Part shown: piece after piece, positions 9,800 through 35,400 of the stretch
Position numbering within the stretch: position 1 is the stretch's first letter
How the letters are laid out: the number at the start of each line of letters is the position of its first letter
Source: a virus
DNA: 64,000 nucleotides
IMG/VR virus record: IMGVR_UViG_3300005253_000144
Span: 38,175 to 102,174 of that record
Reading direction: 5' to 3' (one strand)
Made by a program: the position numbers and the translations under genes
Notes under the pieces: generated by a model
What the model was told of the DNA's origin: nothing
Database searches by the model: none
Seen by the model: the letters and a program-made list of their open reading frames with translations, nothing else

Positions 9800-9944
9800 A
9801 TTGAATATTTTCTTAGGCCGACAGGACTTGCACCTGTGACCTCCGTGCTTTTGGCAACGGTGCTCTATCAGCGCTACTTACTTGGCCGGGAGCGACCCAT
9901 TCTTTCGGCACCTATCTGAGCTACAGCCTAAGAAAATATTCAAT
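9800..9944 (-). ncRNA. tRNA-like RNA with 52-nt D-loop and extended acceptor stem
   Basis: TAGGCTG-TA-GCTC...GAGC-A-CCGT...ACGG-AGGTC-ACAGG-TGCAAGT-CCTGT-CGGCCTA cloverleaf (9813-9930) inside a perfect 19-bp inverted repeat (9800-9818/9926-9944). Confidence 0.75.
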
Positions 9945-9968
9945 TATTAATTTTCTGAATTCCATGTA

Positions 9969-9997
9969 ATATTACCATTTGCGCTATAATTTGTCAA
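9969..9997 (-). promoter_or_regulatory. sigma70-type promoter with TATAGC spacer box, upstream of the 9.5-9.9 kb ncRNAs
   Basis: TTGACA-AATTATAGCGCAAATGG (17 nt)-TAATAT. Confidence 0.75.
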
Positions 9998-10018
9998 GTG
10001 TTTTATATCAGATATATA

Positions 10019-11596
10019 TCAGAAAAGATTCTGCTGGATACCTAAACTCAACCAATAATCTAGCCGCGCTTTAGCAATGTCAATGTATGCCCGTAAAAAT
10101 TCTACACCAACTATGCATTCCCAGCCTGCCTGGAACGCGCCTATCATTTCGCTACCAGTTCCCGCAAATGGCACGAAAATACGGCGTGGGGCATATTCAT
10201 CTGGTGGGAGTAGCAGAGTTGCTAAGTGTTTGATTAGGGCAATCGTTTTTATGGTGGGGTGTACATTGCGCTTACAGGGTTCATCCTCTCCCTTGTCATT
10301 TATATGATGGGTGCTGTGTAGGTCCCCGCATTTGGCGCAGGGGATGTGATGGATTAATCCTTTCTCGCGCTCAACATTTCCGGTCTTTGCCATATATTTG
10401 AAGGCCGCTTCCTGTTCTAGCTTTTCGTATACATAATCAGCGTTGAAAAAGAATTGTGACGCGCCGCCAGAGTCGCCATAGGTATCCTGCAAAGTCGGTC
10501 TATCGCGGTCTCCTTTGTGCCAACCCCAGTTTTTAGCATTGTGTTCGGGAGTCATCAGTCCACTTTTCAAATGCCCGCTCTGCCTATCCAGTTCTCTTGC
10601 CGGACATCCTTCAACGCATTCCCAGACCGCACTTTCACCGCCAACTTCCTCGCCTTCGTAATCTTCGCCGACCGCGTCTCCGAACGGTTTTGCGCCGTCT
10701 GTAAATCGGTTGATAATATAGCCGTCCGGGGAAGTGCCAATGCGCTTGCAGTCTGGGGAATGTTGGATTATGAAGTTGGCTGGCCAGCGGCCAGAGGAAC
10801 CACCCCATTCCTTTTCTTTCTCTGTTTCCGCCCACCCATAAATGTGAGACGGCCCGCTCCCGGTCGGTCCTACTGGTTTTCCAATCCTCCCCCCATCAAT
10901 ATTCAACGCCCCCGCCCCCGTGCGCGTGATGTCGTCTACCGGTCTACCTTTCTCTGTGTACGGTTTCTGGAATACGATTATCGGCTCAAGTGCGGGCTTT
11001 TGAGCTTGCAGTCCGTAGCGGTGACCTTCCCAGGTTTTGGCTAGGTCGGTGGTAGCCTGTTCTCTATAATTGGTGTGTCTACCATCAAATATACTATTCT
11101 CTTGAATATCTTGTGTTTGTCTAGTACCACCATCTCTATATCGGTCATACCATTCTGATTCTCTCTCTGCCCCCGCCGCCTTATCAATCTGCGTATCAAT
11201 CCGAGTAGCTTTCGGAAATCCACTCCCATAAACCCAACCCATCATCGGGTGGATAATATAACCACTGTCCTCAATCGCAACCGCCATCCGGTGTGCTGTT
11301 CTACTGCCGCCGAATGTCATACAAAATGCGCCGGGATATAGTAAGTCCCAAAAGGCGCGCCATGTTTCTGGTCGGAATGCCACATCGCCTCCGTCCCATT
11401 CCTGTGACATAAAACCGCGGGATACCCGCTGAAATGCACCATCGCTCCCAAACTGAGCAGGTGCCGCGCCATCTTTTCCAAAACGTTTGGTGATACTGGT
11501 TAGATGATAGGGAGGGTCCGCGAGGAGTGCGTGAAAAGGCGCACCATCATAATGTTTAGCAAAACGTATTACATCACCATTTAATATTCTATTCAC
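10019..11596 (-). CDS. DNA adenine/N4-cytosine methyltransferase (beta-type)
   Basis: LADPPY motif IV; HPTIK; VPFAGTGS motif I. Confidence 0.9.
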   Translation of the reverse strand: MNRILNGDVIRFAKHYDGAPFHALLADPPYHLTSITKRFGKDGAAPAQFGSDGAFQRVSRGFMSQEWDGGDVAFRPETWRAFWDLLYPGAFCMTFGGSRTAHRMAVAIEDSGYIIHPMMGWVYGSGFPKATRIDTQIDKAAGAERESEWYDRYRDGGTRQTQDIQENSIFDGRHTNYREQATTDLAKTWEGHRYGLQAQKPALEPIIVFQKPYTEKGRPVDDITRTGAGALNIDGGRIGKPVGPTGSGPSHIYGWAETEKEKEWGGSSGRWPANFIIQHSPDCKRIGTSPDGYIINRFTDGAKPFGDAVGEDYEGEEVGGESAVWECVEGCPARELDRQSGHLKSGLMTPEHNAKNWGWHKGDRDRPTLQDTYGDSGGASQFFFNADYVYEKLEQEAAFKYMAKTGNVEREKGLIHHIPCAKCGDLHSTHHINDKGEDEPCKRNVHPTIKTIALIKHLATLLLPPDEYAPRRIFVPFAGTGSEMIGAFQAGWECIVGVEFLRAYIDIAKARLDYWLSLGIQQNLF

Positions 11597-12131
11597 GCTC
11601 TGCCCTTTGTAATTTTATTTCTCTGATACGATGACATCTGGGGCATACAGTTATAAGATTTTTAATCTGGTTTGCTTTTGAATAATCATTAAATTTCCTA
11701 GAAGGAACGATATGATGTACATGTAATGAGTGCCCTATATTTTCCAGACACTCACTTTCCGTTATTAAACAATCTTGACATGTATTATTATCTCGGTTTT
11801 TTACGGCTCTACGCTGTGCATACCAGTTTGCTCCGTGATGATTTATACCATTTCCATGAATAAACTGTGGATGATTTTTACCAATTCGGTATTCATCTCT
11901 GCATGGCCTAGAGCAATATTTTCCCGCCCCTTTATGTTGTTCAAGTTTGCTTTTGGCTATTACAAAGTTCTTTCCACAATTTAAACATTGTTTTTTGGCT
12001 AACCTAAGATGTGGTCTTGCTTTAATTGCAGCGTACTGGCAATCTTTTGAACAATGTTTACCGCGGCCATGTTTGATACGTGAAGGATTCCTACTAAATA
12101 TTTTTCCACAACATTCACATATGAAGTCCAT
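11589..12131 (-). CDS. HNH endonuclease with Zn-ribbon repeats
   Basis: Two CxxC...CSxxC repeats; RDNNTCQDC, LHVHHIVP, NLITVCPRCH. Confidence 0.9.
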   Translation of the reverse strand: MDFICECCGKIFSRNPSRIKHGRGKHCSKDCQYAAIKARPHLRLAKKQCLNCGKNFVIAKSKLEQHKGAGKYCSRPCRDEYRIGKNHPQFIHGNGINHHGANWYAQRRAVKNRDNNTCQDCLITESECLENIGHSLHVHHIVPSRKFNDYSKANQIKNLITVCPRCHRIREIKLQRAERE

Positions 12132-12253
12132 TTTATTATTATAAGATAAATCATGGGACGAGGCAATTGAAATACATAGCAAAGGCTATAACATCCCCTG
12201 TAATTATCCTTGCATTTATGCTTTCCATTTCTTAATTATACCAATATTGATAC

Positions 12254-12282
12254 TTGACATTTCACATCGCATCTGCTATACT
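12254..12282 (+). promoter_or_regulatory. Near-consensus sigma70 promoter antisense to the local genes
   Basis: TTGACA-17 nt-TATACT with TG extension. Confidence 0.6.
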
Positions 12283-12310
12283 TTGGTTATAACCCCTTGG
12301 CCTGCCCCCC

Positions 12311-12652
12311 TCAGGTCCGGGGGTTTATTTTATTTTCTGTAAATAGTCTTTCGGCATGATTACTATCCAATAGAGTAACGACCTCTTTAGTCGTGTTGCT
12401 GTAAATGGGGTAATAATCTTTATCTCCGCATCTCACCATATGCAGAGTCCGCGATTTTGTCAGCCTCACATATCGCTTGCTTTTATTCCTTCTTATCGAA
12501 TGTAGAATTTCCGTTCTTAATTCATCCGTGAAGTTGATATCCAGCTTTTCTCTGGCTCTTTTTATCGTATGGCGGCGATAACCCACTTCGCGCGTATAGC
12601 GTGCCCTTTTCCTTCTTCTTCTTCGCTTTGATGACCCGCGCCTACGCGGCAT
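12311..12652 (-). CDS. Basic hypothetical protein
   Basis: Arg-rich N-terminus; HTIKRARE...VVTLL resembles small RNase-fold phage proteins (weak). Confidence 0.5.
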   Translation of the reverse strand: MPRRRGSSKRRRRRKRARYTREVGYRRHTIKRAREKLDINFTDELRTEILHSIRRNKSKRYVRLTKSRTLHMVRCGDKDYYPIYSNTTKEVVTLLDSNHAERLFTENKINPRT

Positions 12653-12659
12653 CTAATGT

Positions 12660-13286
12660 CTACGCGTTGCCGTAGATATTATCAACCATGCCAGCCTTGA
12701 TAGCCATATCAGCATTGAACCAAGTATTATGCTTTAATGATTTCTCAACATCCTCCCGCTTAAGAGTGCTATTATTCAGATAAAATGTGGTGATGCGTTC
12801 TATCATCATATCCAATAGCTTAACATCGTCTTTAATTTGTGTATATGTACCCCACATAAATGCCGACAATTCGTGGATAAGCATGTAGGCCGAGGGTTGG
12901 ATATATCTTTGTGAACAGGCCATCGAAATGAACGTGGCCGCACTCGCGCACATTCCCTCAACAATGGAATAGATGGGCGTCTGGATTTGTTTGATTTGGT
13001 CTGAAATCGCAAACCCATCAGTCACCGAACCGCCCCAAGAATTTATATGAAGCCAGATGGGAATGGGTGGAAAGTCAGGTGGGAGTGCTCTTGAAATGTG
13101 TTCACTACGCAAGAAATTGTCCGCTTCCCTAAGCCGCTGCAACAATGTTAATCCCCTATCCGAATTAACATCAGCATAGAAATAGACATGATTATTAATT
13201 GCTTCGACAGTAGTTGGTGCAATAAATCGTGGTCCCTCATCTGCCGTTGGGGGAGTTGGTGATTCAAATGTTGGTTTTGGATACAT
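12660..13286 (-). CDS. ClpP-like serine protease
   Basis: LHINSWGGSV, CASAATFI (catalytic Ser), MLIHE, WFNADMAIKAGMVD. Confidence 0.9.
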   Translation of the reverse strand: MYPKPTFESPTPPTADEGPRFIAPTTVEAINNHVYFYADVNSDRGLTLLQRLREADNFLRSEHISRALPPDFPPIPIWLHINSWGGSVTDGFAISDQIKQIQTPIYSIVEGMCASAATFISMACSQRYIQPSAYMLIHELSAFMWGTYTQIKDDVKLLDMMIERITTFYLNNSTLKREDVEKSLKHNTWFNADMAIKAGMVDNIYGNA

Positions 13287-14103
13287 AATTTCTTTCTCCT
13301 TTTGTTTGATTTTCTGCCGGTGCAAGTCCGGGCAGATGAACGCTCGCTAATAAACCTTTTGCCATTTTACAATATTTTTCTACAACTTCAATTCCAATCC
13401 CCTTGCGCCCTATATCTTGGGCTGCCCGCAATGTAGTGCCGCTCCCCATAAATGGGTCTACAACAGTATCGCCTAGATATGAGTACAATTTTATCAGACG
13501 TTTTGGCAATTCATAGGGAAATGGAGCTGGATGTTTAGATGCCGTTACAGGCGTAAAGAACCAAGTCTCTTGGGTATAGGTCAAAAACTCTTTGCGTTCC
13601 CAAGGACCTGATTCCATCCCTTCCGAACTACGTTTCTCTCCCCATTTCTCGGCCACAATAATATATTCATGGCGCCCTCGAAGAACGGGAGCACTGGCAC
13701 TTTGCCAGCTACCCCATGCGGTCGTACCTAATGGAGTTTGTTTGTCCCAAACAATAATCCCAAGTAGCCGCATTAATCGGCGTAGCTGAATCGTGATATC
13801 GGCATGGATAGGGTAGTAAGGATTACGGCCTTGGTCATTAATATTTATGCATAATCGACCGCCACCAATTAATATTCTCTGGCAGGCTATCCAAACAGAA
13901 TCAAGCCAAGCCAAATAGTCCCAATATTCTTTGCTGTCATTGGTTTGATGATTCTCATCGCCATATTCTTTGCCAACATTATAGGGTGGCGATGTGACAA
14001 TAAGGGCTATGGAATTCATTGGAATCGCACTCAATATTTCTAAACTATCGCCATGAAATATTGTGGAATTTTCATTCTGATAAAATGGCTTAAGATATCT
14101 CAT
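13264..14103 (-). CDS. DNA methyltransferase (N4C/N6A, beta-type)
   Basis: VTSPPYN, HPAPFP, DPFMGSGTT. Confidence 0.92.
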   Translation of the reverse strand: MRYLKPFYQNENSTIFHGDSLEILSAIPMNSIALIVTSPPYNVGKEYGDENHQTNDSKEYWDYLAWLDSVWIACQRILIGGGRLCININDQGRNPYYPIHADITIQLRRLMRLLGIIVWDKQTPLGTTAWGSWQSASAPVLRGRHEYIIVAEKWGEKRSSEGMESGPWERKEFLTYTQETWFFTPVTASKHPAPFPYELPKRLIKLYSYLGDTVVDPFMGSGTTLRAAQDIGRKGIGIEVVEKYCKMAKGLLASVHLPGLAPAENQTKGERNYVSKTNI

Positions 14104-14460
14104 TTATTCCGCGGGGTCAACTTGAATGTAGGGCATTAAATATGTGCCCATGTTCCGCTGCGTTTGTATGAAATCCTTCCCTATTTTGTGGCGGATGCGG
14201 GAGACAAGATTGGAAAGATTGTTCATTCCAAGCTGCATTTCTTTCATTATCTCATCTCTTGACACGGCATCCCCAATATTGTTAGCCAGCAATAACAAAA
14301 ATTTATATTCCATCATCGTAAGAAAAATCTCCCTATCATTTAAGAATATTTTTGCACGGTGAAAATCAATCGTTAAATTTCCATTTTGTAGCATTATGTC
14401 ACCACAACTTCGGGGATTTATTGTTTTGGTAATTCTGATAGAGGATATATCCGGCAGCAA
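14104..14460 (-). CDS. Stand-alone OmpR/PhoB-type winged-helix DNA-binding domain
   Basis: LTMMEYKFLLLLA...VSRDEI...VSRIRHKIG...IQTQRNMGTY; no receiver domain. Confidence 0.8.
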   Translation of the reverse strand: MLPDISSIRITKTINPRSCGDIMLQNGNLTIDFHRAKIFLNDREIFLTMMEYKFLLLLANNIGDAVSRDEIMKEMQLGMNNLSNLVSRIRHKIGKDFIQTQRNMGTYLMPYIQVDPAE

Positions 14461-14504
14461 GAAGAATCGATATGACCACCGAAATTATATTTATGGTATT
14501 CAGT

Positions 14505-14996
14505 TTATTTTTTGTCATTGGCAGCTCTACTCTCTTCTGTAATCGAATAATCGTCGATTCCCCATTCCTTTAATTGCTCCCATGTAGTAGCTAAAACGCG
14601 CGCCGCGGCGATAGTTCTTTGTTTGGGGGAAGCATGAGCCAGCAGAAACATTTTTCTAAATATGCGCTTTTCCAACACTATTCTATCCAATTCAGATGCA
14701 TATTTAGCCATCGCCTTTTCCCCCATCTTTTCAATCATATCTTCCGCCATATATGCATGGTCAATATATCTCATAGGAAACCAGCTTTTTGCATACCAAT
14801 AATCAATAGTGTCACAATAACTAAGGTCATGTTCTGTTATCCAGAAACATGGGCGCGGCAAAGACTTGATGTTTTCATTGGTTATATTTTCAATGTCCAC
14901 TTCTTCCCATTTCATTAACTCTGATGCCAGAAACTTAACTATCGCTAGTTCTTCCGTTGAGGGATTTCCCTTAAGAGAAAATTTGTCTTCGCTCAA
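14505..14996 (-). CDS. ABA-sandwich-like phage protein
   Basis: WFPMRYIDHAY...HASPKQRTIAA; ends KEWGI like its paralogs. Confidence 0.5.
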   Translation of the reverse strand: MSEDKFSLKGNPSTEELAIVKFLASELMKWEEVDIENITNENIKSLPRPCFWITEHDLSYCDTIDYWYAKSWFPMRYIDHAYMAEDMIEKMGEKAMAKYASELDRIVLEKRIFRKMFLLAHASPKQRTIAAARVLATTWEQLKEWGIDDYSITEESRAANDKK

Positions 14997-15545
14997 TGCG
15001 GTCCTCCTGTAAGCGACCCATTTTTAATATCGCTTTTGGCCTTCCTCTCCCAGCCCGCCTCCTCCAATAATTCTGGGTGTATATGTTCTAAGCTTATCAA
15101 ATCCCCTTCCTTCGCAAGGATGACAAAAAAGCTTTTGTTGGAAAACCTTTCTTGTAAGTTCATTATGAGGTCAGTAATAGGCTCATAATCAACCTCTTCT
15201 CCTATTGTCATGATATAAATCGCCCCGTGATTCACGTCCACGCGCTTGATATCAATAATCGTTTTCAGTAATTTGAATAATATTTTTAACACCGTTCAGC
15301 CATTTCCTTTCCGCGCTGATTCAATGCAAAATAGGTGACTGTCCCCTCGGTATGCCTTTTCTTGATAAGCATTTTTTTCCAAAGTGAGTAACCTATTTTA
15401 CCCCCAATCCTTGTCAAATCACAATACCATCCTCCGGGTACTGCGCACACCAAATCTTTTCCGGCTACCATTTCAAGCAACACAAAATGCTCACGCGGGG
15501 TAATGTGCAAGGTGTTTATATCAGGAACAGGAATGCCAATAATCA

Positions 15546-15827
15546 TCACAATCCCCACTCCTTGCACTGCTCATCATCAGCAAGTGCTTTTACGGCGGCG
15601 ATGCAGATGGCTTTTGCCGCCTCCCCCGCATTCCTTGTAAAAACATGTCTGCCCATTAGTTGTTTATTGAATTTGTTGAGCTTTTTATTGCTACCATTTT
15701 GAAATATCCGCTCCACCACCATCCACGCGTGTTCTATCTTGTTCATGGGGTCGAACAGTTTAGGAAAAATAATGTAGTCTTTCCTCATCTGTTCTGCCAG
15801 GAACTTCACTATCGCGGATTCGTTCAT
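15546..15827 (-). CDS. ABA-sandwich-like phage protein (paralog of 2641..2991)
   Basis: FDPMNKIEHAWMVV...AICIAAVKAL; identical 3' end to 2641..2991. Confidence 0.6.
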   Translation of the reverse strand: MNESAIVKFLAEQMRKDYIIFPKLFDPMNKIEHAWMVVERIFQNGSNKKLNKFNKQLMGRHVFTRNAGEAAKAICIAAVKALADDEQCKEWGL

Positions 15828-16040
15828 CTCAGCCGCATCTTCTTAAACAATTCTACAAAGTAATCCATATTGCGCACATAATAAGTATACGTTCGCCTAT
15901 GCTTCAGCCAGTGCTTGCAGACTACCATGTGACCATCAACAATCGCGAGAATGTACAGTTTGGCAATGTTGTTTGGGTCATCCTTGCCGAAATCTATCCT
16001 ATACGTCTTGCCCACTTCTACTACCGCCTTTTCGTTCATC

Positions 16041-16724
16041 TCAGACATTCAGCACCTTGAATTCCACGACCCATACCCAGGGATTGGATTCCCAGGGATA
16101 GCCGCGCTTGGCGTTGATAGGATTCCATATCTCTCTAAAGGCCATACCTGGAATATCATTGGGATGAAATTCTGGAAACTTAGCATATTTATCAAGATGC
16201 CGCTGATGTATTCCTTCTGCAATAACATCCCCTACCGTGATTTCATGTAGTCGCTCCACGCGCACATCTGTTATTTCTAAAGTAATACGACTCGCCCAAC
16301 GGGGCATGTGGATTGAGGGTGACCAACGGTAGTTTTCTTCAAGCGTAAATGGGTCAAGATAGTTTGGTTCATCCGCGCGGAATATTATTCGGCAATCCTT
16401 CATATCTTCTGGTGGGTCCATGTCAGGCCATTCATAGAAAAATGTTTCCCGTACCCACAACCTTTCCCCAGGAACACCATAGGGACAATGATACAAAAGC
16501 CCATATGCTGCTTTTAGCTGATGTAATGTTGAGCCTGAAAATCCGCCAGCCCCCTTCTTCCATTCCCAGGCTTCTCCAAAAGATTTAATTCCCTGAGACT
16601 TTGGCTGAGGCTTAATAACCCGCCTCGTCTGAGACTTGCGCCCATCCAGAATAGCGCGAACCATATCGCTATTGAAAATAATCGGGCGTGTTTTTATCTC
16701 AATTGCTGAATTCGGGGACATCAC
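16041..16724 (-). CDS. ASCH/PUA-like phage protein
   Basis: RPIIFNSDMVRAILDGRKSQTRR, SIHMPRWASRITLEI, NPWVWVVEF. Confidence 0.8.
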   Translation of the reverse strand: MMSPNSAIEIKTRPIIFNSDMVRAILDGRKSQTRRVIKPQPKSQGIKSFGEAWEWKKGAGGFSGSTLHQLKAAYGLLYHCPYGVPGERLWVRETFFYEWPDMDPPEDMKDCRIIFRADEPNYLDPFTLEENYRWSPSIHMPRWASRITLEITDVRVERLHEITVGDVIAEGIHQRHLDKYAKFPEFHPNDIPGMAFREIWNPINAKRGYPWESNPWVWVVEFKVLNV

Positions 16725-20895: not shown

Positions 20896-21330
20896 TCATC
20901 CAAATAACCTACTATACATAACGATTGAACCTGCAACCGCCACATTATAAGATGGTATGTTGATGGCCTCTAGTGATACTAGCATATTGCAATCGTCCAC
21001 AATCACATCGGGTAATCCGTTATCTTCCGCCCCTAATATGTAAATGGCGCGTTCAGGATGGGCAAATGACGATAATGCGGTACCGCCCATCTCTACTGCC
21101 ACAGTCAGGCAATTCTTGGGCATATGACTCTTGAATTCATCCCAGTCTAAATAATGATAAAGCGGAAGATGCAAATATGCTTTGCTGGTATCGCTGGCTT
21201 GTTTTTTGTAGCGGCGGCCAATGGTAAAGATGAATGCCGCGCCAAGCTGTTGAGCAGAGCGCCATAGAGTACCGATATTCACTTCCATTTTAGTATGATA
21301 AATGCCTATTCCAAAATAGCCGCGTCTCAT
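20896..21330 (-). CDS. SpoU/TrmH-family RNA 2'-O-methyltransferase
   Basis: NIGTLWRSA, ILGAEDNGL, SYNVAVAGSIVMY. Confidence 0.9.
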   Translation of the reverse strand: MRRGYFGIGIYHTKMEVNIGTLWRSAQQLGAAFIFTIGRRYKKQASDTSKAYLHLPLYHYLDWDEFKSHMPKNCLTVAVEMGGTALSSFAHPERAIYILGAEDNGLPDVIVDDCNMLVSLEAINIPSYNVAVAGSIVMYSRLFG

Positions 21331-22333: not shown

Positions 22334-22337
22334 AACT

Positions 22338-22706: not shown

Positions 22707-22709
22707 ATA

Positions 22710-24802: not shown

Positions 24803-25526
24803 CGTTACTATTGCTCAATTTCCATTATTTGTTCCAGTTCAAAAGTTGCATATTGCCCACCATGTACCTTATGTGCACGCAACTGTGCTGCGATAACAAT
24901 TCCAGTATCGGTCATGCGCACGCCCCCACTCGTGAGCGTTAGAAACTCTACAAATCCTGCCTTGACCATATTTTCTAGGCAATCCCAATCATCATGCTCT
25001 TTAATTACATTTGGTTTCTCTTCGGTGTGTCCTTTGAGGCGTGTTCCATATTTATAGCCGTAGGGAGGTTTTTCAAGAGCAAGGATTGCCCTAGCTTGTA
25101 TATGACCTACAAGTAATGGATGTGTTCTGATATTCACGCGTAGTTTGTTCCGGTCTATTTGCCCCCATTGGTCCAACGCATCTACACAAATGGTTTCAAG
25201 ATAAGCTAACAAACTCCAATGGTCGCGTCCAAATTTTTCAACTGGCACAGTTTCCATGGTGTGAACTCCTCATCATTAACATTCCCGCCAATTGTAGCAC
25301 CTTGGTTAGTATATGTCAATCGGTTTGCCTCTTTAATATACGAAGGCATTTTTTACAAGTCACATTATCCTTTTCGGTTGTCCATAAAGCTTGTCCCAAA
25401 TTTATTGCTCTAGGCCGCTTAAAACAAAGGGCCGACACATGACCATCTGACCTAATATGTGATGCCATATGATAAATCTTGTCATCGTAATATGGGTCAT
25501 TTTTAGGTGACATATTTCATATTGAA

Positions 25527-27158: not shown

Positions 27159-27163
27159 TGAAT

Positions 27164-28528
27164 CTAATCCCCATCATCAGCGCGGCCGCCCATAATAACA
27201 ACTTGCGGTTCAAGGCGCGCTACCCGATTAATAAGCAGGCCGTCCTGAATCGCCATTACATCTTCAATATCCTTATATGCCTGGATAGTTTCATCTGAGG
27301 CAACGCCATGATAAGAAATATTTTTGTCCTCCATGTGCTTTTTGAATTTTGCCTCGGAGTGCACCCGCTTGGCCTCTGTGCGCGAGTAGGGGCGGCCAGC
27401 ACCATGCGCGGATGAAAATAATGCCTCAGGGTTTCCTAGCCCACTAGTTAAATAACTTGGAGACCCGCTCGTACCGGGGATAAGTCCAATCTCATCCTTA
27501 TGTGCTGGCGTTGCGCCCTTGCGATGGACATAATTGCCCTTTGAGTTCAACCAAGCATAATTATGTCGATTGAAAATCGTCCCGGCTACTTGCAATCCAC
27601 TAGAGCGCGCAAATGTAGAGTGGATAATTTCGTGATTGGCAAGAGCATATTCACCCATAAGCTGCATGACCTCCCAATATTCCTTTCCAGCATCTGTATC
27701 CATACGTAACCAACCATGACCCTTTGGAACATTTCTGGTAGTCGCCTTGGTTTCATTTTCGGCCATCTTTGTATAATGCGTTGCCAATTTATGACCCGTG
27801 CCGCGGCTTCCAGAATGTGTGAGCAGGCCTATCCTTTTTACCCTATGGTCCATAGGCAAAAATTCTGGAGACACATTCGCTCGGATTCGTGAAATAAGAA
27901 CTATATCAGCAAAGTGATTTCCGCCGCCGCTTGTGCCCAACTGCCGATTTGCCAAATATTGCAGGGCTTTAACTTTGGGGGCTATATTCCATTGCTCATT
28001 ATCCATGACAGCATGTTTACGCGGGGAATCAAATTCTAAACCCACACCAAACTTTGTAGATGCTTTTAAATAATCTGCGAACATCTTGCGCCTGCTAATA
28101 AACGCATTTGGTGGGATATCATACACACTTAACATGACCATGCAGGAAATGTCGAAACCGATGTAACCTGGTGAAATCGCGTTTTCCGTTTCGATGACCC
28201 CGCCAATGGGTAGGCCGTAACCTTTGTGGGCGTCCGGCATCAGCGCAGCTCTTATTGCGGGCGGTATCCGCGCGCACACTTCCATTTGGTCATAAGCGTT
28301 TTTAGGAATTAGGGCGCCGACTTTTCCAAATGTTGCGATTGGCACGGGCACATCTCGGTATGCTGGAGAAGTATCCTTTCCGAATTTCTTTTCGACCGCC
28401 TCTAATATCTGTTCCGGGTCATTGCCGAGTTCCCCGGTCAGGCTCGCGGCGTACTTGGCAATTTCAGGATACCCGCGCCGTGAATGATATTCCTTTAGCA
28501 ATTCATGCGTGTTGATTCTTTTTGTCAT
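27164..28528 (-). CDS. rtcB: RtcB RNA 3'-phosphate/5'-OH ligase
   Basis: MPDAHKGYGLPIG, GFDISC, GGGNHF, HSGSRG, HRKGAT, SSAHGAGR. Confidence 0.95.
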   Translation of the reverse strand: MTKRINTHELLKEYHSRRGYPEIAKYAASLTGELGNDPEQILEAVEKKFGKDTSPAYRDVPVPIATFGKVGALIPKNAYDQMEVCARIPPAIRAALMPDAHKGYGLPIGGVIETENAISPGYIGFDISCMVMLSVYDIPPNAFISRRKMFADYLKASTKFGVGLEFDSPRKHAVMDNEQWNIAPKVKALQYLANRQLGTSGGGNHFADIVLISRIRANVSPEFLPMDHRVKRIGLLTHSGSRGTGHKLATHYTKMAENETKATTRNVPKGHGWLRMDTDAGKEYWEVMQLMGEYALANHEIIHSTFARSSGLQVAGTIFNRHNYAWLNSKGNYVHRKGATPAHKDEIGLIPGTSGSPSYLTSGLGNPEALFSSAHGAGRPYSRTEAKRVHSEAKFKKHMEDKNISYHGVASDETIQAYKDIEDVMAIQDGLLINRVARLEPQVVIMGGRADDGD

Positions 28529-28547
28529 ATTTAATGAGCCTCCTATC

Positions 28548-28985
28548 TTATTCTGTTTTTATTGTTTTTGTACTCTTTTGAATACGATGAATCATATAAT
28601 GTGCTGATTTATAGGTAATGTCTAACATATGGCGCAATTGTTGTGCTGGAATTCCCCTCTTGCTTATATTCATCATATAAATTGCGATTAGCCATTTATT
28701 CATGGGAATATGAGTGTCTTCAAAAAGCGTGCCAATGGTGACTGTGAAGTTCTTGCGGCAAAAACCGCATCGATATACACCAGGCCGAATTCTATTTTTA
28801 TACTTCGTTCCTGGTTTTGATTCTAGTTTCCATGCGCCTCCGGCACTCCCGCATTTTGAGCAGACAATTCCATTAGGCCATCGGATATCCTCAATAATCT
28901 CGCGGGATTCATCTTCTGATAGCTTCGCAATTTTTATTAAGTCAAGATTAATCAGATAGTTCTGTATTTCTTCTATTAGTGTCAT
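28548..28985 (-). mobile_element. IS1595-family transposase N-terminal fragment (Zn ribbon + HTH, no DDE domain)
   Basis: IRWPNGIVCSKCG...YRCGFCRKNFTVTIGTLFEDTHIP..KW...ITYKSA; ORF ends before the catalytic domain. Confidence 0.8.
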
Positions 28986-29065
28986 TCAATCAAGAATCCT
29001 AATCCTGCGGTCATACCAAAGCCAATGAATAGGATTGAGAATCCTTAATTCCTCTGGCATCATCG

Positions 29066-30817
29066 CTAAATGTCTCCTATCGCATTCTCGTAAAATACAT
29101 CACTGGCGCGTATTTCTTTGGTCCCGGTTATCAACTCTAATATGCGCAATTTACTCAGTGCGTTATTGAACCCGCCGCTGGTTACCTGATAATCCGTCAT
29201 TATGGCTATCATTTCCTTGGATAGGCTCTTCGGATATTCATCACAAAGTACGGCTAATATTCTTCGCTGTGCGCGGCCCAATTTCCGTTTCCAATATTCT
29301 ATCAACTCCTGACCAACGGGTAAAGGCGCGTATTCTTCCCCCAAGGCTTCAAACCCGCTATCCGTGATTATAAACTTTCCGAGGTTATCCACCTCCATAA
29401 ATCCAGAGATTTTAAGATTGCTTAAAGCATTTGCAAACCCTCCGCTATTGATTGAATAACTGGTAAGAATAGCGATTTGTTTCTTGTTCTTTGTGTTTGG
29501 ATGATGCTGTGCAAGAGTTCTTAATATCCGATTCTGCGCACGGGGCAACTTATCACCATCAAAATTTGGGAGCGTATTGTTTGCTATTGGCTGCATACTA
29601 GGGCGAAGTGTGCTGGTCTCTACTTGTGACGCCCTTGCCATCTTCTCCATTACCACTTTGCCACTGGCCTCCTGCTTCTTCATCCCAAGGATTATCTGGT
29701 CAATAGTTTTGGGCAGGTTTACGAATTCCTTTGTAATGGTAGTCAACTTCGTAGATAACTCTTGCAACGCTTCATAGGTTTCTTCAGGAACAAACGGAAC
29801 TCGCACAGGAACTTTGGTTTCAATATTCTTAATTACGGTATTAGGCGTTGCTACTATTTTCTCCGATGCCTTCGCCTTCCGGCGTGCTTTAGCAATATCG
29901 CGTTTCAGTTCTGTGTTCTCGGTCTGTAACTGCACCAATAGGTCGGTTTCCCTTTGCGCCTCCTGGGGCAAATCCCCCATTTGTGAAACCAATGTTAATA
30001 TCGCCTTCGATGCTGGCGGAACTCTCATTTTGAATCGTTCACCTTGTTTGGGATGCGTGCTTTTAACTTTGTCAGAGCGGAACTCCACAACACCTGCCAT
30101 GGAAAGGGCTGCCCCAAATGTATAAAACATTCCAGGTTTCAAATTACGCAACTCCATCCGCTTGGTTTTGCCCATACCCAATAGGTCGCCTGCCCGCTTT
30201 TGGTCAATATCTAAGGCTGTGCGCCCGATAATGATATTGTTTGCTTCGGCCGCGGCGTCTTTATGTAACTTGCTTAATCGCTGCGTGGAAAGGATTCCAG
30301 CGTAGCCACGCTTACGCCCCTGCGACATCAGGGCGATAACCGCCTCCGAACTTTCCGCACTTCCTGCAGAGCGTTCTGGGCAGTAGACATGCGCTTCATC
30401 TAAGATTACCAAGATAGGATGCCAATATTTACGCGGCAAATTCATCAAGCTATCTAAGAACAGCTTCACATAAGTTCTACGGTCAGCTAGTTTCAAATCG
30501 TACAAATCGATAATCGCGCTTATCTCTTTCTCTGCCAATTTGCGCGCTAACAATTTTGCCGTCTTGATAGTGGTGGCCAATTCGCCATCATTGCCAATAA
30601 GAGCAATGGTAATCTCTTCCCTTAATGTTATAAACTCTCCCTCCGGGTCCAAAATAATGATTTGGACATCTGCCGCCGTTCTTTCCGCGATAAGACGTAG
30701 TAGCCAAGACTTTCCCCCGCCGCTGTTTGCTGACACCAGCATACGTGTGTCAATCAGTTTTGGGAGGTCAATTTTTAATTGCTTATCCTTTGCGACTTGC
30801 CCAATTACGAATTGCAT
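29066..30817 (-). CDS. HerA/FtsK-like (DUF87) P-loop ATPase with coiled coil and two C-terminal winged-helix repeats
   Basis: ANSGGGKS, ILDPEGE, ILDEAH, QGRKRG, STQR; duplicated RAQxRIL...SGGFxNALSxL. Confidence 0.85.
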   Translation of the reverse strand: MQFVIGQVAKDKQLKIDLPKLIDTRMLVSANSGGGKSWLLRLIAERTAADVQIIILDPEGEFITLREEITIALIGNDGELATTIKTAKLLARKLAEKEISAIIDLYDLKLADRRTYVKLFLDSLMNLPRKYWHPILVILDEAHVYCPERSAGSAESSEAVIALMSQGRKRGYAGILSTQRLSKLHKDAAAEANNIIIGRTALDIDQKRAGDLLGMGKTKRMELRNLKPGMFYTFGAALSMAGVVEFRSDKVKSTHPKQGERFKMRVPPASKAILTLVSQMGDLPQEAQRETDLLVQLQTENTELKRDIAKARRKAKASEKIVATPNTVIKNIETKVPVRVPFVPEETYEALQELSTKLTTITKEFVNLPKTIDQIILGMKKQEASGKVVMEKMARASQVETSTLRPSMQPIANNTLPNFDGDKLPRAQNRILRTLAQHHPNTKNKKQIAILTSYSINSGGFANALSNLKISGFMEVDNLGKFIITDSGFEALGEEYAPLPVGQELIEYWKRKLGRAQRRILAVLCDEYPKSLSKEMIAIMTDYQVTSGGFNNALSKLRILELITGTKEIRASDVFYENAIGDI

Positions 30818-31201
30818 AATATGCCTCTTTCATTTATTATAACAATTGTTAGTCCCTAAATTTTTCCTTCATGGCTTCCATAAAACCTGGTGGCCCATCA
30901 AAATAAAACTCTGCTTTTATAGCATATGCGTTTTGTAAATACTGTGCCATTTCTTTAATGTCGTGTATGGATGCAGTATGTAGGTCCAGCCGCTTGACAA
31001 TATCTTGCCCCTTCTGGTGCGAAAGGATGAAGACCACAGTATTGCCATGACTTTTTTGGCTATGCCAATCCACGCCCACTTCCATATTCTCACCCAGGAT
31101 TAATTGCAATGCCTTTTTAAGCTGCGCAAATTCTGTCCGTAGTGCTTCGTCCCTAGGGATGAAAAGGTTTTGGAACTTACGCCGGATAAACGCTTTAATT
31201 T

Positions 31202-32605
31202 TCATTGGTAAATCCGTCCCCAAGCTTCGTCCAGCTTTTTGGCACTCCATATATTGGGGACATATTCAATGAGCGGCGCATCATGGTAGCTGCTGATGGC
31301 GGCTGTGCCTTCAACCGCATCCAAGTACATTGAAAATCTACCCTCGCCTTCAACGACTAAAATATCTGGTATCTCGGCCGCGTCAAGCACATCCTTATAC
31401 TGCTCCACAAAAGCGGTATCTACTGAAAGCCTTCCAGCACTCAGCAATATTTTTGGGGTTATATCCTGTTCCTTTTCCTCAAAGTCTGCCCCACGCCCAA
31501 CGTTTTTGAATCCGAGTAGCGTGAGTGGCAAGCCATGTTCTTTACATTCTTCGATTACATAAGAAATCTTATCACTATAATGTGCGCCCACAACAAAATG
31601 GGCAACACCGCGCAGACCAAAGGCATCGTTAAGACCGGCTATATTTTTAACATCGTAGTGATTGTCAAGAGAGAGCGCATATGAACCTGCATATTCTCTT
31701 ACAGCTCGCAGGACTTCATGGCTCCATTTATCGGGCCGGATAAAGGTCGTGAAATTTGGGATGATGTCCAATTCTCTCGCCCTTTTAAGGATGGCCGGGA
31801 AATCTGGATGCAGCGTTGGCTCCCCGCCGCCAATGGCAATTTCAAACACGCCGCGCGCAGATAAGACTTCTAAATATGTTTCGATAGTTTCATAATCGGC
31901 ATGGTTGCCAGCAATGGTGCTGTCTTGATAACAGAAAGCACAATTGGCCGGGCAATAGTTGGTTATCTTCAGGTCAACCAATTCCGGAGTCGCCGAGCGT
32001 AGCAATTCATTCGGCTTTTTATCAAAGGATAACCTTAACTTCGCCCCGGTTACTTGATTAAACAATGTCCACCAATGGCCTGATTTCTTGGCAAGATAAT
32101 TACTGCCATCGACCTCTCCCAGCATTCTTAGTTCCCAATCGATGGTATCCCTGGTCTTATGCTCTCCCCATTCATCCGGGTCATCGCCATTATCATTGCC
32201 GCCCAATACCATAATATCTGGGCGTTGGAGATAATCGCGGAAGTCTTTAATAAATGCGGTTGAAAGGCGTTTTGTATATGCATCGCGCGGGAAGCCTAGG
32301 TGAGATTGATGGTCAACATATGCGCCTTCAATTTCTTCAACTTCCATTTTTTTCCCTACCAATTCAGATATGATAACTGCGGCAAGGTCTTCGCCCATTT
32401 CCTTTACGATGGCTTGATAGACTTGGGCTATGAAATAATCCATTTTGGGTCCTGGGTCAGAAAGCACAAAACATTCCCATCCAAATTCATATCCCATATG
32501 TCCAGGATTAGTGGGCAGGGCAGCTTTCCCCTTTGGCAATATAATGATTGAATGGCTGCTAGATGAATTTGTTGCTAAACCGAGTCTAATATTTGCAAGT
32601 TGCAT
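31202..32605 (-). CDS. Radical SAM protein with N-terminal TNSSSSHS domain
   Basis: CPANCAFC cluster motif, GGGEPTLHP; N-terminal RLGLATNSSSSHS. Confidence 0.88.
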   Translation of the reverse strand: MQLANIRLGLATNSSSSHSIIILPKGKAALPTNPGHMGYEFGWECFVLSDPGPKMDYFIAQVYQAIVKEMGEDLAAVIISELVGKKMEVEEIEGAYVDHQSHLGFPRDAYTKRLSTAFIKDFRDYLQRPDIMVLGGNDNGDDPDEWGEHKTRDTIDWELRMLGEVDGSNYLAKKSGHWWTLFNQVTGAKLRLSFDKKPNELLRSATPELVDLKITNYCPANCAFCYQDSTIAGNHADYETIETYLEVLSARGVFEIAIGGGEPTLHPDFPAILKRARELDIIPNFTTFIRPDKWSHEVLRAVREYAGSYALSLDNHYDVKNIAGLNDAFGLRGVAHFVVGAHYSDKISYVIEECKEHGLPLTLLGFKNVGRGADFEEKEQDITPKILLSAGRLSVDTAFVEQYKDVLDAAEIPDILVVEGEGRFSMYLDAVEGTAAISSYHDAPLIEYVPNIWSAKKLDEAWGRIYQ

Positions 32606-32609
32606 AGTT

Positions 32610-32936
32610 TCACCTCATTTGTAGGATTGTCCAGATTGCGATTAAATGGAATGCTTGGTCATCCATTTGTTGAGCATATAGCTTTTCCTCATCATTGCCA
32701 ATTAAACGACTCCACCAATAGCCTAGCCGGAAGCCATCGATAATTGCATGGCTAATCGCAATGAAAAGAATTTGTGCGAGAGAAAATCCCAAGACCACAA
32801 ATGGTAATGATGTAATCAAAACGTGTAGTATTAGGATATAAAATTCCTTCTGTTTTCGTTTCCTCAAATAGGCCGTATTAAATAGCCAGTCCCCAATTAT
32901 GTGTGCGATTAATGCCTTTGAAAACATTGCTTCCAT
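32610..32936 (-). CDS. DUF3307-like membrane protein
   Basis: AHIIGDW, H...SHAIID, DQAFH; start trimmed because the longer ORF runs through tRNA-Asn. Confidence 0.75.
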   Translation of the reverse strand: MEAMFSKALIAHIIGDWLFNTAYLRKRKQKEFYILILHVLITSLPFVVLGFSLAQILFIAISHAIIDGFRLGYWWSRLIGNDEEKLYAQQMDDQAFHLIAIWTILQMR

Positions 32937-32938
32937 AG

Positions 32939-33011
32939 CTGCCACGGAAGGATTTGAACCTTCAACCTCGCGATTAACAGTCGCACGCTCCACCAATTGA
33001 GCTACATGGCA
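32939..33011 (-). tRNA. tRNA-Asn (GUU)
   Basis: Full cloverleaf TGCCATG...CTGTTAA...GGTTCAAATCC...CGTGGCA-G; G73; CCA not encoded. Confidence 0.95.
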
Positions 33012-33012
33012 A

Positions 33013-33180
33013 TGGTGACAGACCGCGACCTCGATTACGGCCAGCACCTCACGAGACGGAGTACGCTACTTTTGAGACCTGTGCTGAATGGCCGCTTCCA
33101 ACACATGGTAGCAATTCCACTGGCGGCCGGGACAGTATAGGAATCTCACTTAAGCCTCACTGGTTTTCCGGCGGCCTGTC
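33013..33180 (-). ncRNA. 168-nt tRNA-like RNA ending in ACCA
   Basis: Terminal stem GACAGGCCGC/GCGGTCTGTC + ACCA; internal arms GGCCGC/GCGGCC and CAGCAC/GTGCTG; exactly fills the tRNA-Met to tRNA-Asn gap. Confidence 0.75.
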
Positions 33181-33182
33181 AA

Positions 33183-33258
33183 TAGCGGAGGCGGGAATCG
33201 AACCCGCGTAGGTCCAGGTTATGAGCCTGGCAAGCAAGCCAACATGCTCAACTCCGCG
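33183..33258 (-). tRNA. tRNA-Met (CAU), initiator-like
   Basis: Cloverleaf with CTCATAA loop, C1xU72 mismatch and A11-U24; anticodon stem CCAGG/CCTGG has only two of the three initiator G-C pairs. Confidence 0.9.
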
Positions 33259-33259
33259 A

Positions 33260-33330
33260 TGTTGAGAGGGCAAGCACATAGGGGTTATGTAAAAATAAAA
33301 ATACTATGTGCCCATTCGTTGGCCCTCTCA
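33260..33330 (-). ncRNA. Small rod-like RNA between tRNA-Pro and tRNA-Met (Y-RNA-like stem)
   Basis: TGAGAGGGC/GCCCTCTCA and GCACATAG/CTATGTGC helices, asymmetric bulge, U-rich apical loop. Confidence 0.55.
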
Positions 33331-33331
33331 G

Positions 33332-33405
33332 TCAGGATGGTAGGATTTGAACCTACGCCCTCCTGGTCCCAAACCAGGCGTTCCACCGGACTGAACTACA
33401 CCCTG
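33332..33405 (-). tRNA. tRNA-Pro (UGG)
   Basis: CAGGGTG...TTTGGGA...GGTTCAAATCC...CATCCTG-A cloverleaf; C1-G72, A73. Confidence 0.95.
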
Positions 33406-33429
33406 AATGTTAGACAAAAGATAGTCTTT

Positions 33430-33696
33430 TTAATTCTCTAGCGAAAGACGGATAATGTACAACTCTTCCTTCATATTCTTTACCTCTTTAACCTGCCTCG
33501 CAATTTTGCCAGCCAAGGGACATAGCTCTGATATAGGCTCTTTTTCACTCCCAGAGGTCGTCGAGGTTAGCTGTATGGATATTGCGTTTTCCAACCGTGT
33601 ACGCAATTCATCAATTGCTGGACGTAACTCAGCCAGTGCATCCTCTAAATATGAAATCTGAGCCGTTACTTGTGATTCTTGTACTGCTTCGTTCAT
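33430..33696 (-). CDS. Small coiled-coil protein inside the RNA cluster
   Basis: 88-aa ORF with AAGGA RBS and heptad pattern. Confidence 0.65.
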   Translation of the reverse strand: MNEAVQESQVTAQISYLEDALAELRPAIDELRTRLENAISIQLTSTTSGSEKEPISELCPLAGKIARQVKEVKNMKEELYIIRLSLEN

Positions 33697-33725
33697 TTTG
33701 ATATCCTTTCAAATAAATTTCGTTT

Positions 33726-33872
33726 AGATACTCAGATGGTGGCGGCAGCCAGGCCTCGCACGGTTTCAACCTGGGTCACTTTCAACATTCGTCTGCCGGC
33801 TATCCTCCCGTGCTCTGGGAGTCTTGATTACTCGTAACGCTTTAGTCGCCTTCCGCCACCACTTGAATATCC
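33726..33872 (-). ncRNA. Structured RNA with tRNA-like 3' end (CCGCC-ACCA)
   Basis: Outer stem GGATATTCA/TGAGTATCT (two G-U pairs on minus strand), inner TGGTGGCGG/CCGCCACCA, CCAGG/CCTGG arm before the acceptor-like strand. Confidence 0.6.
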
Positions 33873-33878
33873 TTCTTA

Positions 33879-34105
33879 TTGGATGCTCACTATGGGCGAG
33901 GAAGGGCTGACACCTATCGCCTTCGCCCATCCTCTCATTCTCTCTGGGCGTTATCCCGCTCTAATCAGGAAAACTTACGTATGCTTTACCGATTGCAGTT
34001 CAAACCCCTGCAACTAGGTAAACAGCCTTGATAGGATTTCCGTTACTAAGGGGCCTCTGTCAGACTAGAGCAACACGCCACTATATGCCCATAGTGAGCA
34101 TCCAA
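33879..34105 (-). ncRNA. 227-nt structured RNA closed by a perfect 19-bp stem
   Basis: ttggatgctcactatgggc (33879-33897) / gcccatagtgagcatccaa (34087-34105); inner helices GCTCTAGTC/GATTAGAGC, TTTACC/GGTAAA, TTGCAG/CTGCAA. Confidence 0.7.
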
Positions 34106-34124
34106 ATGTTAATGTTCTGGGGAG

Positions 34125-34197
34125 ATTGAATATCCAGGAAAGCGGTGGGATGAAATGTTGGCCGCATCCCATCCCGCCGCCGTCTCGGACATTCAAT
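34125..34197 (-). ncRNA. Small structured RNA/hairpin
   Basis: ATTGAATGTCC/GGATATTCAAT 11-bp stem (G-U only on minus strand), inner TGGGATG/CATCCCA. Confidence 0.55.
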
Positions 34198-34201
34198 TTG
34201 T

Positions 34202-34256
34202 GAGGGGGAAGGCCAGCTAACAAAGATTGTAAGTCTAATGCTTAGCCTTCCCCCTC
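34202..34256. ncRNA. 12-bp GC-rich hairpin with structured loop
   Basis: gagggggaaggc/gccttccccctc perfect inverted repeat. Confidence 0.5.
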
Positions 34257-34294
34257 TGTTGTAAACAAGGGCTTCCCTGCCCTTGCATACTGTG

Positions 34295-34456
34295 CGGGTA
34301 TTGTGATTAACGATTGCGCCAATTTCTATACCGATGCTCTATCGACTGAGCTACGGACCCCAATATAAACAAACCATTCTTGATTTGCTTATGGAGGGTC
34401 CAGTGGGACTCAAACCCACGACCTTCGGTTCTCATTGCTGTCGTTTATCACACCCG
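34295..34456 (-). ncRNA. Circularly permuted tRNA-like RNA (YrlA/Y-RNA-type architecture)
   Basis: tRNA 3' half with CCA (34429-34392) precedes a 31-nt hairpin linker and then the 5' half (34360-34330); acceptor GGGTCCG/TGGACCC; anticodon arm replaced by a long terminal duplex. Confidence 0.85.
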
Positions 34457-34519
34457 TGGGTGCTGACGCTATTGGAGTAATACGCTTATCTGATTCTTAA
34501 GCGGAGGCTCACAATAACG

Positions 34520-35275
34520 TTACTCCTTAATTTCTCGGGTCTCGATATAGGCAAACAGCTTTGCGGCCATGCCGATGCTATCAGGTTTTGTTTCGATGTC
34601 ATTGGCACGCTGCCGCGCCTTTTTGACTTCATATAACAAATTGTCAAGGCGCCCCAATCGGTCCCGCTTGTCCACAATGGTTATCATACCGGATTGGCTG
34701 ACGGTTTCCCATTCGCCAACTTTGGCATCCTCGTTGTAGGGTTGTACCTGCGCCGGATGTTCAAGCGTGGCCTCATACAAGACATGGGTTTTCATTTGTT
34801 TCTTCATTCGGTTGGTAATAACCGGGTCAGAAACATAGATACCCTTTTGCTCATCGAAATCCCATTTTTGACCGGGAGGAAGCGTGGGGATGGCTTCATA
34901 AACCCTGCGTAATTCTGCCAGCTTCCCTTCCAGATTCAGCAATGCTGTGGCTGGCAATTCTCCAAGCAGTGGCGTGCCATCAATTAATATCGTGTCCCTA
35001 GCTTCGGTATTGGCAATTTCTTTACCAACCGATACGTCAATCCAGGCACCGACTTGCTCAAAGACGCGCGCCAACTCTGCCTCTACCGTAGTAGCAAGTT
35101 CAGTGTGCTCTTCCGGGTAAGTATCCTCTCCCTCAACAATCAACTGATATTTGCGGAACTGCCCCAAGAAATGGGCTTGTCCCGCATCAAATAATCCCCG
35201 GACCTCATTGATTATTGCTGTCGCCTTACCTCGCAAATCCGGTTCAACCGCTAATAGTTCGTACAACTTTGTCAT
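34520..35275 (-). CDS. Helical 251-aa protein of unknown function embedded in the ncRNA operon
   Basis: AAGGAG RBS; MTKLYELLAVE start, LPATALLNLE, YEATLEHPAQV, VKKARQRAN motifs; I recognise the style as a widespread uncharacterised family but cannot confirm a name. Confidence 0.85.
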   Translation of the reverse strand: MTKLYELLAVEPDLRGKATAIINEVRGLFDAGQAHFLGQFRKYQLIVEGEDTYPEEHTELATTVEAELARVFEQVGAWIDVSVGKEIANTEARDTILIDGTPLLGELPATALLNLEGKLAELRRVYEAIPTLPPGQKWDFDEQKGIYVSDPVITNRMKKQMKTHVLYEATLEHPAQVQPYNEDAKVGEWETVSQSGMITIVDKRDRLGRLDNLLYEVKKARQRANDIETKPDSIGMAAKLFAYIETREIKE

Positions 35276-35295
35276 GCTGAAACTCCTTTCGTTAA

Positions 35296-35400
35296 TTGGG
35301 TGCTCAACTGGTGGCGTGTCGGTTTCTCACCGACGGCAACGCGCTGTTGATATTCACCAATCCGCTATATGCTTTCCGCCGCCACCACCTCAATATCCAA
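35296..35400 (-). ncRNA. Leader RNA with T-arm-like hairpin and CGCC-ACCA end; related to 33726..33872
   Basis: TGGTGGCG/CGCCACCA stem; GTCGG-TGAGAAA-CCGAC 5-bp stem/7-nt loop; sits between the promoter and the ORF RBS. Confidence 0.6.

Follow-up and report, generated by a model that had tools for sequence, protein, structure and literature searches.

The window analysed here comprises 64 kb of an uncultured phage, namely bases 38175-102174 of the 102,174-bp IMG/VR virus record IMGVR_UViG_3300005253_000144 (CheckV completeness 91%), which is present in DNA runs of marine-sediment metagenomes from two studies. Its genes are phage-like and include those for a GH25 lysin, an HNH endonuclease, DNA methylases, a HerA-like ATPase, a radical SAM protein and RtcB. 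Structured RNAs occur at two loci, and five of them, named El1 to El5 (Table 1) and all on the minus strand, are closed by helices that resemble each other in sequence. It is these closing helices, and what their likeness may mean, that we address here. El2 to El5 belong to a cluster that reads, from 5' to 3', El5, a gene for a 251-amino-acid (aa) DUF7873 protein (E 4.6e-69), a hairpin, a YrlA-like permuted tRNA mimic, two more hairpins, El2, El4, El3, an 88-aa open reading frame (ORF), tRNA-Pro, a rod RNA, tRNA-Met, a 168-nt RNA and tRNA-Asn. The DUF7873 gene thus sits inside the RNA cluster, and El3 and El5 each lie directly upstream of an ORF. The tRNA genes of the cluster number three, and the remaining 38 kb of the genome outside the window has no tRNAs.

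El2 to El5 fall within one promoter-to-terminator unit, and El1 lies outside it with a separate promoter-like site. The site at the head of the cluster is strong, no comparable one follows until a terminator-like hairpin past tRNA-Asn, and no internal promoters were predicted at the shared motif. Because there is one strong promoter-like site with none comparable before the terminator-like hairpin, and because the elements abut, a polycistronic setting is supported for the cluster of El2 to El5, in agreement with the first-pass annotation of this sequence.

All five inverted repeats reported in that annotation were recovered. When the elements are folded singly on the minus strand, each repeat forms the outermost helix of the minimum free energy (MFE) fold; the local closing helices persist when 576 nt of context are folded together. 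El1 and El4 have 19-bp perfect arms (9800-9818/9926-9944 and 33879-33897/34087-34105, respectively) and El3 has arms of 22 nt (33727-33871). Together with the arms of a ~300-nt RNA next to El1, these are the longest long-range inverted repeats in the 64 kb, and the other 38 kb of the genome hold none comparable. Perfect Watson-Crick inverted repeats of at least 9 bp are at chance genome-wide (104 observed vs. 105 expected), and 8-mer sharing among them is uninformative. El1 is tRNA-like, with a D arm that carries a ~40-nt insertion, a short 5-nt-loop 'anticodon' arm and a T arm, and its 7-bp acceptor stem is continued by a 14-bp extension into a 21-bp closing helix (AUUGAAUAUUUUCUUAGGCUG / CGGCCUAAGAAAAUAUUCAAU). 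The 19-bp perfect closing helix of El4 is formed by UUGGAUGCUCACUAUGGGC and GCCCAUAGUGAGCAUCCAA. In El3, 5' GGAUAUUCA-A-GUGGUGGCGG pairs with 3' CCGCCACCAU-C-UGAGUAUCU as 9 + 10 bp with a 1x1 loop between them, and the base of El2 has 12 bp that run on into a ~31-bp rod. The ends of El5 (5' UUGGAUAUUGAGGUGGUGGCGG and 3' CGCCACCAGUUGAGCACCCAA) pair imperfectly. One G-U pair in El2 and two in El3 would become A.C or C.A on the plus strand, so that these pairs fit the minus strand only and bear out the earlier argument that G-U pairs favour it.

Table 1 Features of the two RNA loci and of related genes. Positions are those of the window; A is GGAUAUUCAA and A' its partner strand, and the class gives their order from 5' to 3'.
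Feature	Position	Strand	Fold, score or sequence	Class	5' closing strand	3' closing strand
El1, tRNA-like RNA	9800-9944	(-)	MFE -56.4 kcal/mol, z -5.5	A'...A (A as 3' strand)	AUUGAAUAUUU	AAAUAUUCAAU
El2, 73-nt rod hairpin	34125-34197	(-)	MFE -42.2 kcal/mol, z -6.9	A'...A (A as 3' strand)	AUUGAAUGUCC	GGAUAUUCAAU
El3, 147-nt RNA just upstream of 88-aa ORF	33726-33872	(-)	MFE -56.1 kcal/mol, z -3.7	A...A' (A as 5' strand)	GGAUAUUCAAG	UGAGUAUCU
El4, 227-nt multi-branched RNA	33879-34105	(-)	MFE -100.1 kcal/mol, z -7.1	A...A' (A as 5' strand)	GGAUGCUCACU	UGAGCAUCC
El5, leader RNA between operon promoter and DUF7873 gene	35296-35400	(-)	z -2.7	A...A' (A as 5' strand)	GGAUAUUGAGG	UGAGCACCC
GGAUAUUCAA copy, 10-nt word, 5' strand of El3	33862-33872	(-)				
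GGAUAUUCAA(U) copy, 3' strand of El2	34125-34135	(-)				
Promoter-like site, sigma-70-like, strong, TG-extended; would drive whole RNA/ORF/tRNA unit	35440-35412	(-)	TTGACT-17-TATATT			
Promoter-like site of El1	9997-9969	(-)	TTGACA-17-TAATAT			
YrlA-like permuted tRNA mimic	34332-34427	(-)	RF02553, 33 bits, E 1e-4, below gathering score			
Three tRNA genes	32938-33405	(-)				
RtcB	27164-28528	(-)	E 3.6e-71			
ATP-dependent RNA ligase, PF09414	24152-24802	(-)	E 3e-19			
~300-nt structured RNA	9468-9774	(-)	z -4.6			
168-nt RNA	33013-33180	(-)	z -1.8			
Hairpin past DUF7873 stop codon	34467-34519	(-)	CGUUAUUGUGAG...CUCCAAUAGCG			
Mini-ORF VVAEGD*	33842-33862	(-)				
Mini-ORF VVAAESI*	35365-35388	(-)				

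Two further features were noted at El1. Part of its 3' closing strand, CCUAAGAAAA, is directly repeated 8 nt downstream of that copy (9789-9809, minus strand), and this repeat could be an alternative partner for the El1 5' strand. The ~300-nt structured RNA directly downstream has 35-nt closing arms that are 80% complementary on DNA, and more so when minus-strand G-U pairs are counted; no Rfam family matches it, and the shared motif is absent from it.

A duplex of GGAUAUUCA with UGARURUCY is common to the stems of El1, El2, El3 and El5, and there are exact matches between elements: the 10-mer TTGAATATCC is present both at 33863 and at 34126, and ATTGAATAT both at 9800 and at 34125. To assess the significance of this likeness, all 12 non-tRNA closing helices from both RNA loci were taken, each with its outer 8-11 bp, and base-pair columns were shuffled within each helix. 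Identical runs of at least 7 nt were found in 5 element pairs vs. 0.2 expected (0/5000 shuffles), the longest shared run being 9 nt (P 0.005) in a test that took the El3 arm as 9 nt; the genomic word common to El2 and El3 has 10 nt. The runs involve El1, El2, El3 and El5, with El4 linked through El5 only by a 6-nt run. El4 resembles no other element than El5, sharing just GGAU..UCA / UGAGCAUCC with the rest. Four or five RNAs thus have closing helices whose likeness in sequence is real and above chance. This does not extend to the loose consensus by which the duplex had originally been described: TGARYAT and RTRYTCA occur 32 and 78 times, respectively, on the plus strand of the genome, as expected by chance, and genome-wide pairs of 8-mers 40-300 nt apart, one mismatch allowed, number 36 vs. 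30.8 expected (P 0.26). Most of the other genomic motif copies that were placed fall in ORFs, and none has the context of the RNA copies. The likeness exceeds chance at the level of the actual stems and not at that of the TGARYAT/RTRYTCA pattern.

The cargo RNAs between these stems had been called unrelated, which does not hold for all of them. El3 and El5 are paralogues, with homology over ~30 nt at the 5' end (common sequence GGAUAUU.A.GUGGUGGCGG.GGAA.GC) and ~20 nt at the 3' end (CGCCACCA..UGAG.A.C), and the ends of El4 and El5 are also alike (cayuuuGGAU and UGAGCAYCCaau). Strand A is exact in El2 and El3, and these two copies constitute a 10-nt direct repeat, GGATATTCAA, that flanks El4. 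The likeness of the stems is hence partly explained by paralogy. El1 and El2 are 24 kb apart, lie in different transcription units and have unrelated interiors, and they have AUUGAAU and AUAUUCAAUC exactly in common at the helix base. Across the elements, the GGAUAUUCA strand is more strictly kept than its partner strand. Where the A' strands depart from a perfect complement, the changes are mainly transitions, and the resulting pairs are G-U on the minus strand only, a pattern that suggests selection on an RNA helix and not on a DNA site.

The nucleotide comparison of the cluster rests on one near relative, represented by contigs from a different study (2024 marine-sediment run X4). It covers most of the cluster at roughly 98% identity, with 40 differing letters and 8 gaps over ~2.2 kb aligned. 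Positions 33746-33875 (130 nt), which hold the El3 interior and 5' strand, are replaced in the relative by 128 unrelated letters, and both flanks are ~99% identical. A swap of this extent, in a stretch that is otherwise ~99% identical, has the look of recombination and not of drift, and suggests that cargo may be exchanged. Eight substitutions fall in El2, El4, the YrlA-like RNA and the rod. A predicted pair is retained at four of them (G-U to A-U, C-G to U-G) and lost at two, and the others are at unpaired positions. Those in El2 include a change from G-U to A-U at 34181 and one at 34136 that breaks the innermost pair of the outer helix. The four substitutions in El5 are all outside predicted pairs; one of them, G to C at 35391, turns GGAUAUUGA into GGAUAUUCA and, in a hand register of the outer helix, puts a C-G pair in place of a G.G mismatch. 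Arm differences that run through minus-strand G-U transitions suggest selection on pairing at the RNA level.

Before position 33172 the X4 contig likewise diverges from the window (33005-33172), in the part that holds the 168-nt RNA. This RNA, which separates tRNA-Met from tRNA-Asn, has a terminal helix of 11 bp with CCAU after it, and its overall fold is not clearly beyond shuffles. In the low-scoring tRNA-Met gene, the dominant contig of a further run, X2, from which this record may derive, differs from the window at 33228-33230 by two G>C changes and a 1-nt insertion.

Relatives were also sought more widely. GenBank phages matched in the tRNAs alone, an IMG/VR protein scan returned nothing close, and an exact-pattern scan returned nothing; a DUF7873 protein that is 83% identical (P0002) was found. 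The 160 related DUF7873 loci were all scanned for the motif pair, and the 80 viral ones among them were compared with the elements by blastn-short. A 14-nt identity in one locus (L078) lies inside coding sequence and was taken as chance.

We consider it quite possible, if somewhat short of probable, that the closing helices are a lineage-specific family of frames, alike mainly by descent, and that they act as stems for end protection and for processing in a polycistronic RNA. Each frame would consist of the GGAUAUUCA/UGARURUCY duplex lengthened to ~19-21 bp, and the frames would bracket different cargo RNAs within a probably polycistronic phage transcript, having spread by duplication and by recombination that exchanges cargo between conserved arms. 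The long terminal helix would hide both RNA ends from exonucleases. A host RNase III-type endonuclease specific for double-stranded RNA (dsRNA) would cut each RNA at its frame out of a ~2.5-kb primary transcript, and the neighbouring tRNAs would be freed by RNase P and by enzymes that process tRNA 3' ends. The helices, their above-chance likeness in sequence, the paralogy, the single promoter-like site and the replaced cargo are what the analysis shows; transcription as one unit, the cleavage and the identity of the nuclease are what we infer. Descent of the frames is supported by the El3/El5 homology, the likeness of the El4 and El5 ends and the GGATATTCAA direct repeat around El4. A common dsRNA signal, as originally envisaged, is plausible because three elements have helices of 19-21 bp and the sharing of sequence goes beyond chance. 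The stems come to about two turns of dsRNA (20-22 bp), with 21 bp in El1, 19 perfect bp in El4, 9 + 10 bp in El3 and 12 bp running into the ~31-bp rod in El2, and RNase III accommodates ~22 bp (PMC6212723).

Several observations weigh against such processing frames. The outer helix of El5 is weak, with four mismatches, and its fold is the weakest of the five. Relative to the cargo, El1 and El2 have the duplex the other way round from El3, El4 and El5, so that the cargo hangs on opposite duplex ends in the two classes, and a cut at a fixed position of the motif would therefore leave unlike stubs. A search of the 91%-complete record for PF14622 gave no match to an RNase III gene, and a host enzyme would therefore have to act; RNase III is present in most bacteria. 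Motif-flanked stems were found in none of the related DUF7873 loci, neither by blastn-short on the viral ones nor by the motif-pair scan on all. Finally, the only relative compared at the nucleotide level is nearly identical on the flanks of the swap.

Given the flipped orientation and the El3/El5 paralogy, common ancestry could by itself account for the likeness, with no recognition signal needed. The likeness would then be a historical by-product of duplication and AU-rich helix ends, with any stable helix serving equally well and no factor reading the sequence. The paralogues, the matching ends of El4 and El5, the flipped motif in El1 and El2, the chance frequency of the loose consensus and the missing motif at the other DUF7873 phage loci all fit this account. 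What makes us regard it as rather unlikely is the exact sharing of AUUGAAU and AUAUUCAAUC between two elements as distant as El1 and El2, with interiors that are unrelated, together with the stricter conservation of the GGAUAUUCA strand relative to its partner and the change at 35391 in the relative, which moves El5 towards the motif.

A different possibility is that the sequence matters for translation. GGAUAUUCAA would be in part a translation-initiation-like element masked by the complementary strand, and the ORFs downstream would be controlled by a leader peptide or by this masking. Two mini-ORFs (Table 1) lie within the 5' strands of El3 and El5. In both elements the GGA of the motif makes a Shine-Dalgarno (SD)-like box 10 nt before these GUG-initiated mini-ORFs, a similar AAGGAUAUCAAAAUG precedes the start of the 88-aa ORF, and both elements are directly upstream of ORFs. 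In the X4 relative the El5 start becomes AUG (35388) and a change from GAA to GAG is synonymous (35374), but these are the only two informative substitutions. El1 and El2, moreover, have no start codon after the motif, the El3 motif and start codon are buried in the 9+10-bp helix (the outer helix of El5 being weak), and GGATAT precedes an ORF of at least 40 codons in only 7/117 occurrences, so that it is not a general ribosome-binding context here. Control of translation is accordingly doubtful, and less credible than a by-product of descent. A more specific variant, an anti-SD switch between the El3 3' strand and the SD of the 88-aa ORF, was discarded on three central mismatches in register (aligned by hand).

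The genes for RtcB and the PF09414 ATP-dependent RNA ligase are on the same strand as, and downstream of, the cluster of tRNAs and tRNA mimics, which suggests that an RNA-repair and decoy module may be encoded here. In a further proposal, a phage protein, be it DUF7873, RtcB or the PF09414 ligase, would recognise the duplex or load onto it, and would then seal the excised RNAs or make them circular. Both ligases are encoded, the DUF7873 gene lies inside the RNA cluster, and the closing helices bring 5' and 3' ends together. The chemistry tells against one combination of enzymes. RNase III leaves 5'-phosphate and 3'-OH ends (PMC6212723), RtcB joins a 3'-phosphate or 2',3'-cyclic phosphate to a 5'-OH, and ATP-dependent ligases require a 5'-phosphate and a 3'-OH (PMC7824862). 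Cutting by RNase III followed by circularisation by RtcB is therefore chemically inconsistent, since the ends made by the one differ from the substrate ends of the other. With both kinds of ligase encoded by the phage, some form of sealing is nevertheless conceivable. While an RNA ligase of the RtcB type is at hand for making circular RNAs, no nuclease producing 2',3'-cyclic phosphate/5'-OH ends was identified among the ORFs scanned, and no self-cleaving ribozyme family matches at E <= 10 within 32500-35600. Phage RNA ligases are in any case usually read as tRNA-repair enzymes (PMC7824862). As for DUF7873, its partner RNA in other phages is a YrlA-like mimic that does not carry the motif, and the protein model has no recognisable fold match (Foldseek vs. 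PDB, none at E <= 0.001). A loading site of this kind appears improbable. Slightly more improbable still is a fuller version of it, in which GGAUAUUCA/UGARURUCY is a dedicated 'cassette frame' read by its sequence, a factor of phage or host excises the RNAs and the downstream ligases seal swappable tRNA-mimic cargo; if true, this would amount to a modular RNA-cassette system in the phage-host conflict over tRNA.

The least likely explanation, and one we give very little weight, is a DNA-level signal of near-palindromic TTGAATAT(T)CAA half-sites for a regulator, recombinase or homing enzyme. In its favour, the AATATT core is a palindrome, copies in either orientation are found clustered in two non-coding regions, and an HNH endonuclease gene is near El1. 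Against it, the partner-arm transitions keep G-U pairs on one strand only, which argues for selection at the RNA level, the other genomic copies are in coding sequence with no common context, and gaps of 18 and 6 nt separate the direct repeats from the inverted ends of El4, so that these repeats are not target-site duplications.

Some observations concern the DUF7873 gene and its partner RNA more generally. In this phage a permuted tRNA-like module with a T arm, a closed acceptor-like hairpin and a D arm, which is the topology of YrlA, comes after the gene on the same strand (34263-35275, minus strand). By a crude pattern, the same arrangement recurs in at least 88 of 154 loci from phages and bacteria (in the series L001-L162). 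Five bacterial genomes that encode DUF7873, four of which have the mimic by this pattern, lack a TROVE/Ro60 gene, as does this phage. Directly past the DUF7873 stop codon lies a hairpin followed by UCAGC, and its sequence is conserved in distant phage loci (e.g. L005, L001 and L009).

As it stands, the likeness of the closing helices is statistically real, it belongs to a single phage lineage, and its function is putative. If the frames are processing signals, this phage would pack many unrelated small RNAs, namely tRNA mimics, leaders and tRNAs, into one transcript and then release them, and new cargo could enter by recombination between constant arms. It would also follow that phage small RNAs could be found by their frames instead of by their variable interiors, and the RNA cluster would be linked to the RNA-repair genes encoded downstream.

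Three known systems invite comparison. The first are the YrlA-class Y RNAs of bacteria and phages that act with Ro60/Rsr: the cluster includes a mimic of the YrlA kind, and Y RNAs, like the elements here, have a long stem formed from the two ends, which there holds a protein-binding site (Chen et al. 2014, PMC4201824). The Rsr-associated motif in the 5' strand of that stem is GNCGAAN0-1G (PMC4201824), whereas the shared strands GGAUAUUCA and UGARURUCY contain no CGAA, the YrlA-like RNA of the cluster itself does not carry the shared motif, the 102-kb record has no TROVE/Ro60 gene (no PF05731 match), and the 525-aa ORF adjoining El1 is a DNA methyltransferase. A Ro60-binding site was rejected on these grounds. 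The second are miniature inverted-repeat elements, which El4 resembles in having 19-bp perfect terminal inverted repeats between 10-nt direct-repeat copies. Unlike in such elements, the direct repeats are offset by 18 and 6 nt and belong to the stems of the neighbouring RNAs, there are no further El4 copies in the genome, and the G-U pairing points to selection at the RNA level; with repeats that fail to abut the inverted ends and no dispersed copies, El4 was not classed as such an element.

The closest parallels are found in phage T7, whose early and late transcripts have RNase III sites that resemble one another, and in rRNA, where processing stems flank 16S and 23S. If the frames of El1 to El5 have a function, they would work most like these RNase III processing stems, a comparison by analogy that makes no claim of membership in the class. 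In both precedents, as here, intramolecular helices of ~20 bp lie between the units of a polycistronic transcript and have similar sequences within one genome, and the rRNA stems likewise enclose a cargo RNA. The frames described here differ in being putative cleavage sites, in enclosing a diverse cargo of small tRNA-mimic and other RNAs, and in presenting the motif in two orientations.

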